Source: Escherichia phage Turkey3
Strand: one strand, 5' to 3'
Length of the DNA: 64,000 bases
Sequence record: PQ471515.1
How positions within the stretch are numbered: the first letter of the stretch is position 1; every line of letters starts with the position of its first letter. Made by a program: the position numbers and the translations under genes. Under the pieces are notes generated by a model that searched no databases, was not told the origin of the DNA, and worked only from the letters and a program-made list of their open reading frames with translations. Of the stretch, positions 50,572 through 55,754 are shown piece after piece.

Positions 50572-51267
50572 ATGGTTGAACAATTCAATTTTGGTGGTTA
50601 TGCTGGTGGTGAAGTTCGCAACATTTCTATTCCTTATGTAGTTGAAAAAGTTAATGGTGCAGAACGTACTTATGACCTAGCATCTCGTATGATGCAAGAC
50701 CGTATCATTTTCCTTGATACTGACTTCAATGACCAAATGGCACATATCATCAAGCAACAATTGGTGTGGTTGGATTCTCAGGGTTCGGAACCAATTACCT
50801 TCTACATTAGTTCTCCTGGTGGTTCAGTACACGCAGGTTTGGGTATCGCTGACATTGCTAAGTCTTGTGTATCTCCTATCCGTACAGTAGTAATGGGTTA
50901 TGCAGCATCAATGGGTTGCTATACTCAATCAGTTGTTGGTACTAAAGGTTTCCGTCTAGGTGGTAAGCGTTCTTACTTCATGTGCCACCAAGTAAGTTCC
51001 GGTACTCAGGGTCTGATTACCGATCAGAAGATTTCTTTGAAACACTCTGATGCATTGAACACACTATTGACGAAAGAAATTGCTGAAGCAGTTGGTGTAT
51101 CACACGAACAACTACTGAAAGATGCGGATCGTGACCTGTGGTTGAACGCTGAAGAAGCACTCGAATACGGTGAACATGGTTTCATTGATGGTATCATCCT
51201 CGGACCACGCAACGAAGAAGGTAAGTATCTCGTCAAACGTCGCGGTGGCGTTGAAGAGTGGGTCTAA
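50572..51267 (+). CDS. clpP: ClpP-family serine protease
   Basis: DRIIFLD...YISSPGGSV...GYAASMG...MCHQ...DRD: Ser-His-Asp triad context typical of ClpP. Confidence 0.85.
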   Translation: MVEQFNFGGYAGGEVRNISIPYVVEKVNGAERTYDLASRMMQDRIIFLDTDFNDQMAHIIKQQLVWLDSQGSEPITFYISSPGGSVHAGLGIADIAKSCVSPIRTVVMGYAASMGCYTQSVVGTKGFRLGGKRSYFMCHQVSSGTQGLITDQKISLKHSDALNTLLTKEIAEAVGVSHEQLLKDADRDLWLNAEEALEYGEHGFIDGIILGPRNEEGKYLVKRRGGVEEWV

Positions 51268-51318
51268 TTTGAATTTCATTTGATGCCTCATTTGGGGCAT
51301 CTTATTTCTGGAGATTAT

Positions 51319-51609
51319 ATGAAAGTTCTTGTACGTAATAATACTGAAGTCAATGATGTGTTAGATGATTCAGAGTTTATTAATACCGCATTAGATCAGA
51401 TTAGTGCAGTGGCTATTGAATTGAAAGGTGTTGACGAGGCAGAGCGAGTACTCAATGGTTTTTCTATTGTTCTCGAATTAATGCAAGAAGTTCTTATTAA
51501 AAAGAACATTAATCCAATTAACGCAGTTCAACACGCAGAAGCTATGCGTCAAGAACACGGCACATTCTCAGATAAAAAATTCATCAGTACTGACGAGGGG
51601 AAAGAATAA
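51319..51609 (+). CDS. hypothetical protein
   Basis: GGAG RBS then ATG 51319; track start 51280. Confidence 0.45.
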   Translation: MKVLVRNNTEVNDVLDDSEFINTALDQISAVAIELKGVDEAERVLNGFSIVLELMQEVLIKKNINPINAVQHAEAMRQEHGTFSDKKFISTDEGKE

Positions 51610-51610
51610 T

Positions 51611-52057
51611 ATGTCTAATGCACAATACAAAGAAGGTTCTGCCGCGTTTAAAAACAAAGTAGTTTTTAACAATGAACAGCTAAAATCACAGCACCCACTA
51701 TTCCGTCAAGGTTATCGTGCTGCACAAGCTGAAGCTATGAAGAAAAACAACGTAACATTCCCAACAACTCTGTATGATATTCCTAAACGTCCATCAGTGT
51801 TTAAAGCAGAATGGACTGACATTATGGCAGCAACTAAACGTCCTCGTTTTGCTAAACTTCACACTGATGAAGGTCGCTGGATGTTGATGGGTATTATGAA
51901 AGCAGTTGAGAAACAGGCACATACTATTGTTCGTTACAAAGACGTTGTAGCTATGGTTGATAAAGCATTTGATCTTATTCTCCAGTACGGTTATGATGAA
52001 GGTGTACTAACTGTTTCCGATTGTGAGCAGTACCAGTACACTCCATTCCAGAAATAA
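51611..52057 (+). CDS. hypothetical protein
   Basis: 148-aa ORF. Confidence 0.55.
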   Translation: MSNAQYKEGSAAFKNKVVFNNEQLKSQHPLFRQGYRAAQAEAMKKNNVTFPTTLYDIPKRPSVFKAEWTDIMAATKRPRFAKLHTDEGRWMLMGIMKAVEKQAHTIVRYKDVVAMVDKAFDLILQYGYDEGVLTVSDCEQYQYTPFQK

Positions 52058-52064
52058 TTACTTA

Positions 52065-52094
52065 GGGAATCTTTCATGATTCCCATTTTATTTG
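52065..52094 (+). terminator. rho-independent terminator
   Basis: GGGAATC-TTTCAT-GATTCCC hairpin then ATTTTATTT. Confidence 0.6.
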
Positions 52095-52170
52095 CTGCAT
52101 ATCAAAAAATATTGATCAAAAATTGATCCATACAAGGTAAATACCCAAGGTGTAATTGTTAATAGGGTAG

Positions 52171-52695
52171 GTGGATATGCAGCAATATAAATTATCTGAA
52201 GATCAAAGTGATGTATTTTTCAATCACATGTTTTTAATTGATGAATTTGCCGAAAGTTTAAATTCAGAGGCAATAGCTATAGTTAAAAAGTGGTATTCTT
52301 GCTATAACAAGAACAAAAAATGGTATTGGTTGAATAGAAATTTAAAATCATTTCTAGGAACAATAACTAGTACTGATAGTATTGAACTAATATATAGTTC
52401 CATTGGCTATAGTTACTTAACCAAGCATAATAATACGTCAATAGAGTCTGGCTTTAAAATCAAGCGTCTAATGAAATTGACGGGATTGAGTGCAGAAACT
52501 ATACAAAACGATACAGAAAAGTTATGGAAGATTATAGAATTCATGAATAAAAATATGTCATTTATATATAGAAACTATGATATATTCACTGATGTACGAC
52601 AATTTTATAAGAGTCCATATTCACTTAATGAGAAATATTTCCGACACATGGAATTATGCTCAACTATGGTTGATGAATGGAATTTAGAGGATTAA
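52171..52695 (+). CDS. hypothetical protein
   Basis: 174-aa ORF. Confidence 0.5.
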   Translation: MDMQQYKLSEDQSDVFFNHMFLIDEFAESLNSEAIAIVKKWYSCYNKNKKWYWLNRNLKSFLGTITSTDSIELIYSSIGYSYLTKHNNTSIESGFKIKRLMKLTGLSAETIQNDTEKLWKIIEFMNKNMSFIYRNYDIFTDVRQFYKSPYSLNEKYFRHMELCSTMVDEWNLED

Positions 52696-52696
52696 T

Positions 52697-53923: not shown

Positions 53924-53950
53924 GGAGCCTTATGGCTCCTTTTTCTTTTG
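53924..53950 (+). terminator. rho-independent terminator
   Basis: GGAGCC-TTAT-GGCTCC hairpin then TTTTTCTTTT. Confidence 0.7.
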
Positions 53951-54034
53951 TTAGTACACAACTTGTTTGAATTTCAGGAAAACTCTTAGATCCAACAACG
54001 AGTTCAGTACTACCACGTTATTTGTTGACAAAAG

Positions 54035-54064
54035 CATAGACATTATACATTAGTGTGATATAAT
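54035..54064 (+). promoter_or_regulatory. candidate promoter (TAGACATTA ... GTGTGATATAAT)
   Basis: GACAT-type -35 plus extended -10. Confidence 0.35.
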
Positions 54065-54132
54065 CATTCAAAAGAAGGTAAAAAGGTGGGATGATTCTGC
54101 GAGGGAATTTGTGAAGTGATATAAAAAACAAT

Positions 54133-54159
54133 TTGACTTAAGTTAAATCTTCCTATAAT
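54133..54159 (+). promoter_or_regulatory. candidate promoter (TTGACT-15-TATAAT)
   Basis: short spacer lowers confidence. Confidence 0.3.
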
Positions 54160-54199
54160 ATTATTTATGTAATCAACAATCAACTAAGAGGGTTAACCA

Positions 54200-54808
54200 G
54201 TGGTACGATTATGTAAAGAAATCATCCAATCTATTATTATTATTTTCTTAATTAACTTTCCTGCAAGTGCAGGTGTTGAAAGAAAAAGTATCATTAGATA
54301 TGATGAATCTAAACAGACAGTTCAGTTCATTTCAACTTTAACTGAAAATACTGTAAACCGTTTGATGGTTTTTAGAGAAACACACCCATTTGACACTATC
54401 ATCATTACGTCACCTGGTGGTGATTTTGATGCGGGAGTGGCACTAGGAAATTTTGTCAATGATAACAATTTAACAATTATTGTTGAAAGATATTGTAATT
54501 CTTCTTGCACTATCGCATTCTTTAGTGCTAATATAGAAAACAGATACATGATGAAGGACTCAATTCTAGGTCTACATAATGTGTCAATCGAAAGTAAAGC
54601 ACGAAATAGTGATGACACATACATAACAGTTCGCCAAATGACTATTTTTGCAGAACAGCTATCAACTAAGGTTGGTGTTCTATTTGCGTTATATGCAGCG
54701 AATGGTATTCCTCCAGAATTGTTAGTGGAGGTTAGTAAGGTTCGTGGTAATGAAGTTGTGAGACTTACACCAGAGCAGTTGCTCGAATTAGGTAGTATCA
54801 TTCATTAG
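54200..54808 (+). CDS. signal-peptide-bearing ClpP/S49-like serine peptidase (tentative)
   Basis: GTG start after AGAGGG; hydrophobic N-terminus ending ASA-G; ITSPGGDFDAG resembles ClpP SPGG motif. Confidence 0.5.
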   Translation: MVRLCKEIIQSIIIIFLINFPASAGVERKSIIRYDESKQTVQFISTLTENTVNRLMVFRETHPFDTIIITSPGGDFDAGVALGNFVNDNNLTIIVERYCNSSCTIAFFSANIENRYMMKDSILGLHNVSIESKARNSDDTYITVRQMTIFAEQLSTKVGVLFALYAANGIPPELLVEVSKVRGNEVVRLTPEQLLELGSIIH

Positions 54809-54900
54809 TATTAGATACAAAATAATAATATTATAATAAGAGGATGATAAAGTGGTACATCCTTTGTTATAAGTTAACATACACTAGGAGTGTATAAACT

Positions 54901-55161
54901 ATGACAAATTTACAAAACTTAACATCTCTTGTTTTTTATGCAACAACTATTGTATATTGCATTACATTAGTTTTAACATGTTTCATCTATAAAGACTACA
55001 AACGTGGTTTTATGGATTCCAGTACACACAAATTTGCATCCAAGTTAGAAGCAGGAATTTACTATGTTCTATCAATTTCTTATGGAGCATGTTTACTTAC
55101 ACTAGGGTTGCTGATATACTGGTTGTATACGGCCCTTTTTGCACAAGGAGTTATTTCATGA
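54901..55161 (+). CDS. small membrane protein
   Basis: 86 aa, two hydrophobic helices. Confidence 0.5.
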   Translation: MTNLQNLTSLVFYATTIVYCITLVLTCFIYKDYKRGFMDSSTHKFASKLEAGIYYVLSISYGACLLTLGLLIYWLYTALFAQGVIS

Positions 55162-55754
55162 CTTGTATTATCGCTCACACAAATGGCACATCTTCCTTCA
55201 TCGCTGGTGATAAATTAGGAAGCAATGGTTTCACTAAAGCAGTTCAAACTGAGCCTAAAGTATTTGAGAAAGAATTCATTAAAATCAATGATGATGCTGG
55301 TTTGACCCGTACAAAAGAAATTATGGCGTTAGGGTATACTACATCGTTCCGTATGGGTCAGTTGTTGAATTACAACCTAACTCTACCAGAACAAGTTGAA
55401 GGGGAAACCTTTTCACAGTATCTAGTACTGAAAGTTATTCCTATCATTCGTCAAATGTTTAAAGATGAATGGGGTGCTCGTGATGCATCACAAGATGTTG
55501 GTGGTGGTCAGTTCATTATTCTTCATAATCATACGATTTATGAAGTTCAAGAAGACTTTTCAGTACTGCAACCTAAAACACAAATTACTGCTGTCGGAAG
55601 TGGGACTTATCATGCAATTGCATCCATGTCAGCGTATATTGAAGTTCAAGAAGAAACCAATGTTCAGTTACATGAACGTGTTGAGTCTATTTTCAAAATT
55701 GTCAGTGATAATGTAACAAGTGTTAGTCCAGAGTTTGATATTTTGAAATACTGA
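55158..55754 (+). CDS. HslV/proteasome-like Ntn-hydrolase peptidase (tentative)
   Basis: AGGAG RBS; N-terminal M-T-C-I-I-A...FIAGD and later AVGSG resemble HslV TTIVSV...IAGDGQ and AIGSGG. Confidence 0.55.
   Translation: MTCIIAHTNGTSSFIAGDKLGSNGFTKAVQTEPKVFEKEFIKINDDAGLTRTKEIMALGYTTSFRMGQLLNYNLTLPEQVEGETFSQYLVLKVIPIIRQMFKDEWGARDASQDVGGGQFIILHNHTIYEVQEDFSVLQPKTQITAVGSGTYHAIASMSAYIEVQEETNVQLHERVESIFKIVSDNVTSVSPEFDILKY

Follow-up and report, generated by a model that had tools for sequence, protein, structure and literature searches.

Three non-structural protease-fold genes in an auxiliary-gene block of Escherichia phage Turkey3: a ClpP with a likely phage ClpA partner, a predicted exported ClpP-fold hydrolase and an HslV-like hydrolase

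We analyzed a 64,000-nucleotide stretch of DNA from Escherichia phage Turkey3 (sequence record PQ471515.1), called the window below, in which three genes for proteins with protease folds, here termed A, B and C, lie on the + strand between positions 50572 and 55754. We think it likely that the three protease genes are independent of one another and non-structural, and that they belong to a conserved auxiliary-gene block, with the ClpP from gene A probably working together with a phage ClpA, the gene B product exported, and the gene C product an orphan N-terminal-nucleophile (Ntn) hydrolase. The 64-kb window was searched; the ClpA gene and the gene for an S77 prohead protease, both of which bear on this reading, lie outside it and were seen in close relatives only. 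All three open reading frames (ORFs) are present as follows, and the peptide strings quoted for them in an initial annotation, made by reading the DNA without database searches, were found in their translations.

50572..51267, + strand: gene A, ClpP-family serine protease, 231 amino acids (Pfam, PDB and NCBIfam matches, alignments)
54200..54808, + strand: gene B, predicted exported ClpP-fold Ser/His hydrolase, 202 amino acids (GTG start, AAGAGGG Shine-Dalgarno sequence)
54200-54271, + strand: predicted signal peptide of gene B, residues 1-24, with cleavage predicted after A-S-A
Within 54200..54808, + strand: gene B motifs SPGG (residues 71-74), C99-N-S101-S-C103, and His126
55158..55754, + strand: gene C, putative Ntn hydrolase of the proteasome-beta/HslV fold, 198 amino acids (profile, model, alignment)

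Positions 50000-56000 are 97.7-98.6% identical over the whole 6 kb to phages vB_Ec-M-J, Ecwhy_1, fEgEco12, WPEC5, EC.P1, CMSTMSU, and TH47 (megablast against phage records), and about 80% identical to PBECO4, 121Q, phAPEC6, G17, and related Salmonella phages. The matching relatives are jumbo myoviruses of 350-385 kb in the genus Asteriusvirus, in the "RaK2-like" group, and by this similarity the source of the window appears to be an E. coli jumbo phage of that genus (PBECO4/121Q/RaK2-like). The three genes are already labeled as proteases in near-identical public records (vB_Ec-M-J, fEgEco12, PBECO4, 121Q). In PBECO4 they are gp105 ("head maturation protease"), gp097 ("protease"), and gp096 ("peptidase HslV family"), and the fEgEco12 counterparts of the three genes are g207, g214, and g216. 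Amino acid identity to PBECO4 is 96% for A, 51.5% for B, and 87% for C, with values of 87-98% for the neighboring enzymes. With counterparts in PBECO4 and in dozens of phage records, all three are real genes under selection, with chance ORFs excluded.

Gene A encodes a genuine full-length ClpP in which both the catalytic triad and the axial gate are intact. Its score on the Pfam family CLP_protease (PF00574) was 142.9 bits (E=1.3e-41; gathering score 20.2), and a phmmer search of solved structures returned 109 ClpP sequences (best E=3e-36) over residues 19-209, a range that includes the axial loop IPYVVEK. The nearest NCBIfam models are also ClpP models, at 153-156 bits. In a 16-sequence alignment containing E. 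coli ClpP and 14 homologues, Ser113 (in AASMG), His139 (in MCHQ), and Asp188 (in DRD) correspond to Ser97, His122, and Asp171 of the E. coli enzyme and are invariant. The N-terminal axial gate is present (IPYVVEK...ER), and its residues E8, E14, and R15 are invariant in the same alignment. The protein begins with a 19-residue N-terminal extension, followed by the axial-loop motif IPYVVE at residues 20-25, and ends with a C-terminal extension of about 20 residues. This tail and a 3-residue insertion are specific to the ClpPs of RaK2-like phages in the alignment. These form a tight clade of 60-96% identity that includes RaK2, GAP32, pEa_SNUABM_50, and many metagenomic jumbo-phage contigs; beyond it, identity to other ClpPs in the homologue search falls to about 45-52%, and gene A seems best described as a member of a divergent ClpP clade. 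Set beside the bacterial ClpP of family S14, it has the same ClpP signature, Ser-His-Asp triad, and gate residues (E8/E14/R15) at 35-45% identity, but differs in scoring below the equivalog thresholds, in the pocket replacements F82S, L114G, and R192P, and in the insertion and C-terminal extension. The gene A product would be expected to assemble into the usual double-ring chamber.

A chamber of this kind would need an unfoldase, and ClpA has been reported to be conserved across most RaK2-like phages (PMC6102473). With E. coli ClpA as a tblastn query, we matched 32 Escherichia phage records at 97% coverage and about 43% identity, including vB_Ec-M-J, Ecwhy_1, TH47, and PBECO4.

vB_Ec-M-J 168677-170965 (outside the window): ClpA homologue, 762 amino acids, with AAA, AAA_lid_9, AAA_2, and ClpB_D2-small domains

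Aligned over 732 residues, the vB_Ec-M-J protein and E. coli ClpA share 43% identity. The 762-residue ClpA of this phage lineage resembles the ClpA of bacterial ClpAP in possessing both AAA+ rings, pore loops of the KYR and GYVG types, and a docking tripeptide, IG[M]. In the ClpAs of Asteriusvirus, Mimasvirus, Alcyoneusvirus, and Eneladusvirus, both rings retain their Walker A and B motifs, and the two pore loops are present along with a tripeptide of the form [ILV]-G-[MVF]. The docking loop reads KRSIGMSGS in vB_Ec-M-J ClpA and RKSIGLIHQ in E. coli ClpA, so that the phage has IGMSGS where the bacterium has IGLIHQ. No ClpS or ClpX was detected for the phage Clp system. Because the ClpA encoded by close relatives is complete and has IGM in its docking loop, gene A is most likely one half of a phage-encoded ClpAP. 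With the phage ClpA feeding the gene A chamber, the phage would have an ATP-dependent ClpAP of its own at work in the host cytoplasm. In close relatives the ClpA gene is located about 87 kb from the ClpP gene, and in vB_Ec-M-J it is wedged among large virion structural genes.

The residues of the ClpP pocket that hold the IGL loop have been listed (bioRxiv 10.1101/820209). In our alignment, the phage ClpP clade keeps Y62, M92, and I90 (or V) of this pocket and replaces F82 by S, N, G, or Y, L114 by G, and R192 by P, A, E, or K. Gene A itself has F82S, L114G, R192P, and T for Y60. Cellular ClpPs in the alignment have an aromatic residue or Leu at the F82 and L114 positions. Together with the altered ClpA loop, the replacements suggest a possibly co-adapted pair that may be partly insulated from host ClpX and ClpA. 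The alternative is that the gene A product is not paired with the phage ClpA at all, and that it co-assembles with host ClpP or uses host ClpX or ClpA, redirecting the host Clp system. The infected cell contains host ClpX and ClpA, gene A retains the gate residues and most of the pocket (Y62, I90/V, M92), and mixed ClpP1/P2 rings are known from Listeria, Mycobacterium, and Pseudomonas. Nevertheless, a complete phage ClpA with an IG[MV] loop is conserved over four genera beside this ClpP clade, and it is at F82 and L114 that the clade has changed. We consider redirection of the host Clp system rather unlikely and prefer the pairing of gene A with the phage ClpA.

Automatic annotation assigns gene A (and, in some records, also gene B) a quite different role, that of a prohead or head-maturation protease. 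This label is found in RefSeq or Pharokka annotations (PBECO4 gp105, RaK2 gp046, fEgEco12 g214). ClpP-fold prohead proteases are common in tailed phages, the best PHROG match of gene A is phrog_94 "head maturation protease" (E=9.5e-44), and the ClpP-related head-maturation proteases (NF045542; phrog_94) share with gene A the ClpP fold and the catalytic serine region, as well as the RefSeq label. On the NCBIfam model for these proteases, NF045542, gene A scores 51.1 bits, far under the cut-off of 120 and well below the 153-156 bits that it reaches on ClpP models. Unlike a head-maturation protease, it aligns end to end with cellular ClpP, including the N-terminal gate, and has no portal or capsid gene beside it; it sits among genes for replication and metabolism (ligase, phosphoesterase, deaminase), far from the capsid genes. 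The same phages also encode a cognate ClpA for it. The virion proteome of phAPEC6 does not contain gp353c, gp346c, or gp345c, the counterparts of A, B, and C (PMC7247149). In the RaK2-like phage CBB, virion mass spectrometry did detect the ClpP, with one unique peptide and 4.5% coverage (PMC5259590), the sole hint in the other direction from virions. The head module of the lineage is, however, occupied by another protease, of the gp21 type, which was found in phAPEC6 virions.

phAPEC6 143571-144194 (outside the window): gp227c, Peptidase_S77 (T4 gp21 family), Pfam E=1e-20

The gp227c gene is located between the scaffold and major capsid genes and the portal gene, and its product is 100% identical in PBECO4 and 121Q. 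Because the lineage owns this S77 prohead protease, the name "head maturation protease" on genes A and B (PBECO4 gp105, RaK2 gp046, fEgEco12 g214, and two genes of vB_Ec-M-J) is probably an automatic mislabel derived from PHROG. Head maturation would be carried out by a fourth enzyme, the T4 gp21-type S77 protease of the head module, and we regard such a role for gene A or B as highly unlikely. Counting the S77 protease and ClpA, the genomes of this lineage hold at least four protease folds and one Clp unfoldase.

For gene B, we conclude from its motifs, modeled fold, and N-terminus that it encodes a putative Sec-exported Ser/His hydrolase of the ClpP fold. Its best PHROG is phrog_26024 "protease" (E=1.6e-69). 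The solved structures, searched by sequence, gave no match. Profile alignment with ClpP (hhalign) had a probability of 95.8% and placed His126 under the ClpP histidine. The AlphaFold model (predicted local distance difference test, pLDDT, 92.8) consists of an N-terminal helix at residues 2-19, a low-confidence linker, and a ClpP-like core with the long "handle" helix. A word-indexed homologue search found only 10 proteins, all from Asteriusvirus-type sources, and a full HMMER scan with the alignment of these 10 found 1,494 cluster representatives at E<=1e-3. In a 40-sequence alignment that extends down to 17% identity, the sole invariant columns are S71, G73, G74, C99, S101, C103, and H126. 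Among 159 sequences of the family, CxSxC and SxGG occur together in all but two (157/159), the N-terminus is hydrophobic in 136, and 34 have a lipobox-like sequence. The chromosomal relatives come from Shewanella, Alteromonas, Massilia, Janthinobacterium, Vogesella, Cellvibrio, Vibrio harveyi, and Proteus myxofaciens. We found no Pfam or NCBIfam family specific to gene B; it may belong to COG3904, "predicted periplasmic protein".

The N-terminus of gene B reads MVRLCKEIIQSIIIIFLINFPASA, followed across the predicted cleavage site by G. It has a basic n-region (R3, K6), a 13-residue hydrophobic core (residues 8-20), and an A-x-A site, and L17, I18, F20, and P21-A24 are invariant among 10 orthologue sequences. 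In XaC1 the orthologue begins with a classic signal peptide, in RaK2 with a hydrophobic N-terminus that is less canonical, and the three motifs are present in both. The N-terminal unfoldase gate of the cytoplasmic enzymes is missing from gene B, where a signal-peptide-like N-terminus takes its place. The product would thus be exported and may cleave envelope or periplasmic proteins without ATP. The cysteines C99 and C103, which flank Ser101, could form a disulfide that clamps the nucleophile elbow, as would fit a periplasmic protein. Gene B also differs from the known families that it most invites comparison with. SppA (S49) uses a Ser-Lys dyad, whereas gene B has His126 at the position of the ClpP histidine and lacks the SppA tandem repeat. 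NfeD (1510-N) has an OB-fold domain that is absent from gene B, a single 20-kDa domain with a predicted cleavable signal peptide. Neither has the invariant CxSxC that surrounds the nucleophile in gene B. The fast divergence of gene B would fit a protein that faces the host envelope, and a part in receptor or envelope remodeling is a guess.

Gene C appears to encode an N-terminal-threonine hydrolase of the proteasome-beta/HslV fold. It belongs to phrog_1040, "peptidase HslV family" (E=2.9e-22), and a homologue search returned 272 proteins. In 54 sequences, which reach down to 27% identity, the invariant residues are M1, T2, D18, K34, G59, F64, Q68, G147, G149, A153, and V189. After removal of the initiator Met, T2, D18, and K34 become Thr1, Asp17, and Lys33, and the loop G-S148-G is G-S/C-G in the family. 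The model (pLDDT 93.3) matched HslV in Foldseek at E=8e-10 and BPH with template-modeling (TM) scores of 0.73-0.79, and also 20S beta subunits. Alignment with E. coli HslV by hhalign had a probability of 96.7%, with Thr1, Asp17, and GSG in register. Gene C thus has in common with HslV (MEROPS T01B), BPH, and Anbu the proteasome-beta fold, the residues Asp17 and Lys33, the G-S-G loop, and a Thr1 that immediately follows the initiator Met, so that no propeptide is present. It differs from them in having only 13-19% identity to any solved structure, in failing the HslV equivalog and Pfam Proteasome models, in its own TTSFRMGQLL motif, in an insertion of about 15 residues (approximately residues 40-55) specific to the Asteriusvirus lineage, and in its membership of a phage family. 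That family is widespread: tblastn matched 197 phage records, including T5-like Epseptimavirus and Aeromonas, Vibrio, and Xanthomonas phages, and in Epseptimavirus the homologue sits among genes for ribonucleotide reductase, dihydrofolate reductase, ThyA, and RNase H.

HslU and ClpX are absent from the 64-kb window. Among Escherichia phage records, an HslU query matched 4 and a ClpX query 11 (some of them host DNA fragments), compared with the 32 for ClpA. Because Asteriusviruses appear to have neither HslU nor ClpX, gene C would be an orphan HslV-like hydrolase, resembling BPH and Anbu in the lack of a cognate ATPase gene. Removal of the initiator Met would expose Thr1. Since the phage seems to have no HslU, the protein may act as a peptidase alone, as is thought for Anbu and BPH, or by borrowing host HslU. 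A longer ORF for gene C, starting at 55089, was rejected: all family members begin M-T-C/L, and the ATG overlaps the upstream stop codon (ATGA). We also dropped the idea of a conserved pair of a membrane protein and an HslV-like protein, as the ORF before gene C is dissimilar to the membrane protein before the EPS7 homologue.

The fold assignments in the initial annotation therefore stand for all three genes, namely ClpP for A, a ClpP-like core for B, and an HslV-like Ntn hydrolase for C. The catalytic residues it named are conserved by alignment, and profile and structure checks placed the genes at 54200 and 55158 in protease-fold families and not in non-protease families. Its suggestion that gene B is exported gains support from the conserved predicted signal peptide and the large family of apparently exported relatives.

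Several observations weigh against the interpretation given above. Gene A scores under the NCBIfam ClpP equivalog cut-offs (153.3 against 308.6 bits for TIGR00493 and 156.4 against 249 for NF001368). Two docking-pocket positions that are normally hydrophobic are small or polar in gene A, and its binding to an unfoldase is a prediction. The ClpA gene is not in the 64-kb window and is known only from close relatives, whose DNA is 98% identical in this region. Gene C had no match in Pfam, the Proteasome family included, fell under the HslV equivalog cut-offs (19 against 137 bits for NF003964 and 18 against 157.75 for TIGR03692), and had a best E of 0.16 against PDB sequences. The promoter and terminator calls listed below are consensus matches, and the regional promoter count is not above that in shuffled sequences. 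In the literature searched we found no experiments on proteins A, B, or C, and the paper describing the fEgEco12 genome does not deal with proteases.

The points of this kind are most numerous for gene B. Its Pfam CLP_protease score is marginal (21.0 bits against a cut-off of 20.2), and the aligners put Asn100, not Ser101, under the ClpP serine, leaving the register ambiguous by one residue. There is no conserved acidic third residue of the triad; E185, which aligns there, varies across the family. The signal-peptide call rests on composition and conservation. Gene B might then be something other than an exported active protease, either a dead or non-proteolytic protein of the ClpP/crotonase fold or a protein anchored in the membrane by an uncleaved signal anchor. 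The marginal Pfam score and the lack of a conserved Asp at the ClpP triad position would suit an inactive protein, and the helical residues 2-19 of the AlphaFold model and the less canonical cleavage region of the RaK2 orthologue would suit an anchored one. On the other hand, Ser101, His126, and the oxyanion glycines of SxGG do not vary in the 40-sequence alignment, which reaches down to 17% identity, with CxSxC and SxGG almost universal in the larger set; the A-x-A cleavage motif is invariant in the Asteriusvirus orthologues; and the lipobox-like sequences of 34 relatives also imply export. An inactive or anchored protein therefore seems unlikely to us, and we retain the reading of gene B as an exported Ser/His hydrolase.

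A bolder proposal may be made, which we offer tentatively and consider doubtful as a whole. Gene B would represent a widespread, uncharacterized family of ClpP-fold Ser/His proteases exported through Sec (some 1,500 cluster representatives; SxGG...CxSxC...H; possibly clamped by a disulfide; lacking both a Pfam entry and a solved structure) that RaK2-like phages have captured to cut host envelope or periplasmic proteins, for instance in receptor removal, superinfection exclusion, or lysis. The phages would have, in addition, a private ClpAP that is insulated from the Clp network of the host through co-variation of its docking pocket and IG-loop. If export and activity of gene B are real, a lytic phage that sends an enzyme of a chamber-protease fold into the host envelope would be unusual to our knowledge, and the finding would open up a bacterial family of unknown function. 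Otherwise the locus is a mostly ordinary, already annotated feature of a known group of phages and has no bearing on a long-standing open question. What is added here is that the head-maturation label on A and B is probably wrong, that these phages carry a ClpA partner and with it likely have an ATP-dependent ClpAP of their own, that B is predicted to act in the periplasm and belongs to a large unstudied family of exported ClpP-fold proteins, and that a connection to the small-protein arrays discussed below lacks support.

The surroundings of the three genes bear on whether they act together. The block contains genes for DNA ligase, a calcineurin-like phosphoesterase, dCMP deaminase, Sir2, Nudix, and a PIN-PhoH fusion, all on the + strand, and none of these is a head or tail gene. 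Candidate transcription signals and small membrane-protein genes are arranged as follows.

50510..50537, + strand: sigma-70-like promoter candidate, TAGACA-16-TATAAT with TG extension, 11/12 consensus positions, intergenic, 35 nucleotides upstream of gene A
51282..51301, + strand: terminator-like hairpin, 8-bp stem then T run, directly after the gene A stop
52065-52084: terminator-like hairpin (consensus scan)
53657-53917: small predicted membrane protein
53919..53944, + strand: strong terminator-like hairpin, 11-bp stem then T run, closing the dCMP-deaminase unit upstream of gene B
54037..54064, + strand: sigma-70-like promoter candidate upstream of gene B, TAGACA-16-TATAAT with TG extension, identical in hexamers and spacing to the candidate before gene A
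54901..55161, + strand: small two-helix membrane protein, 86 amino acids, stop overlapping the gene C start (ATGA); 64% identity in PBECO4/phAPEC6, where it is partly unannotated
55786..55977, + strand: small two-helix membrane protein, 63 amino acids, between gene C and Sir2

Three terminator-like hairpins thus lie between gene A and genes B and C, and gene A has a promoter-like site of its own; it looks monocistronic. After gene B the order is a small membrane ORF, gene C, a second small membrane ORF, Sir2, and Nudix. The three small predicted membrane proteins, which flank B and C, are 50-64% identical in PBECO4 and phAPEC6, and no genes of the block evolve faster than these three and gene B. 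RaK2 and XaC1 keep the order ligase ... ClpP ... dCMP deaminase, a minus-strand virion gene, and gene B. In the slot of gene C, these phages have genes for a cytidyltransferase and a nicotinamide phosphoribosyltransferase, followed by Sir2 and Nudix. The preserved order of A and B with the gene C slot replaced suggests that the A-B neighborhood is an old block synteny and gene C a lineage-specific insertion. The three genes accordingly appear to be neighbors through block synteny and not as a pathway or functional unit.

The initial annotation had further raised the possibility of a protease-substrate or processing relationship with a family of small proteins that share a linear motif. Clustering of the window ORFs by BLASTP gave families of 12 and 9 paralogues between 1 and 17.4 kb.

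8856-9326, 9766-10254, 7608-7964, and 16158-16520 (within 1-17400): examples of array genes

An internal motif, [ST]EE.[YF]FQ.S, is common to both families (TEEGYFQGS and EEELFQES are examples), and some copies (TEEGYFQGS) read like a TEV protease site. Under this proposal, the three proteases would form a module that cleaves or degrades the array proteins. The arrays are in the same genome, about 33 kb from the protease genes, the motif is common to two families that otherwise cannot be aligned and has a superficial likeness to viral 3C and TEV sites, and turnover of early proteins by a phage ClpAP is conceivable in principle. The evidence on the other side concerns transcription, compartment, and distribution. 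The transcription units appear to be separate, gene A being set apart from B and C by the hairpins and having its own promoter-like site. The gene B product is predicted to reside in the periplasm, while the array proteins lack signal peptides and would be cytoplasmic. The array family was confined to Asteriusvirus in tblastn, at 3-5 places per genome, whereas A and B also occur in RaK2, XaC1, and Hallingskeid, which have no detectable arrays, and C was also found in T5-like, Aeromonas, and Vibrio phages, the T5-like ones without arrays. The motif is inside the conserved domain core and not in a linker. Chamber proteases such as ClpP and HslV are fed by unfoldases that read terminal degrons, and they are not known to recognize internal cleavage motifs. 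Virion processing is done by the separate S77 prohead protease, and the ClpA, which the initial annotation missed, is the more telling partner. The phAPEC6 virion list holds no gene between gp347 and gp549, where the arrays map by synteny (PMC7247149). We consider processing of the array proteins by A, B, and C extremely improbable. The proposed link is unsupported, and the shared genome is all that connects the arrays with these genes.

A number of smaller observations concern the rest of the block. Just upstream of the ClpP gene, two small ORFs are variable: the one at 49734-50129 has no counterpart at the PBECO4 locus, and the one at 50129-50512 has only 39% identity to PBECO4. Between dCMP deaminase and gene B, PBECO4 (locus 9421-9798) and phAPEC6 have a minus-strand gene for a virion protein, and the spot is taken in RaK2 and XaC1 by a "major tail protein" gene on the minus strand. 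The phAPEC6 protein, gp347, had 75% coverage in mass spectrometry (PMC7247149). No homologue of this minus-strand virion gene was found in the 64-kb window, where 53917-54200 is a 283-bp spacer with a terminator-like and a promoter-like site. A scan for defense systems (PADLOC) gave zero matches for the three proteases, Sir2, and the small membrane ORFs.

Downstream of gene C, Sir2 and Nudix occupy 55987-57287, and the corresponding loci of RaK2 (7571-13107) and XaC1 (7601-10779) contain genes for an NMNAT-like cytidyltransferase and the nicotinamide phosphoribosyltransferase. With Sir2 and Nudix here and the NMNAT-like and phosphoribosyltransferase genes in the gene C slot there, the block looks like a module for NAD+ metabolism or salvage. 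Further along, the PIN-PhoH fusion is encoded at 57978-59417 (479 amino acids). Its phAPEC6 orthologue, gp341c, was represented by 8 peptides in virions (PMC7247149), which is unexpected for a PhoH-like ATPase.

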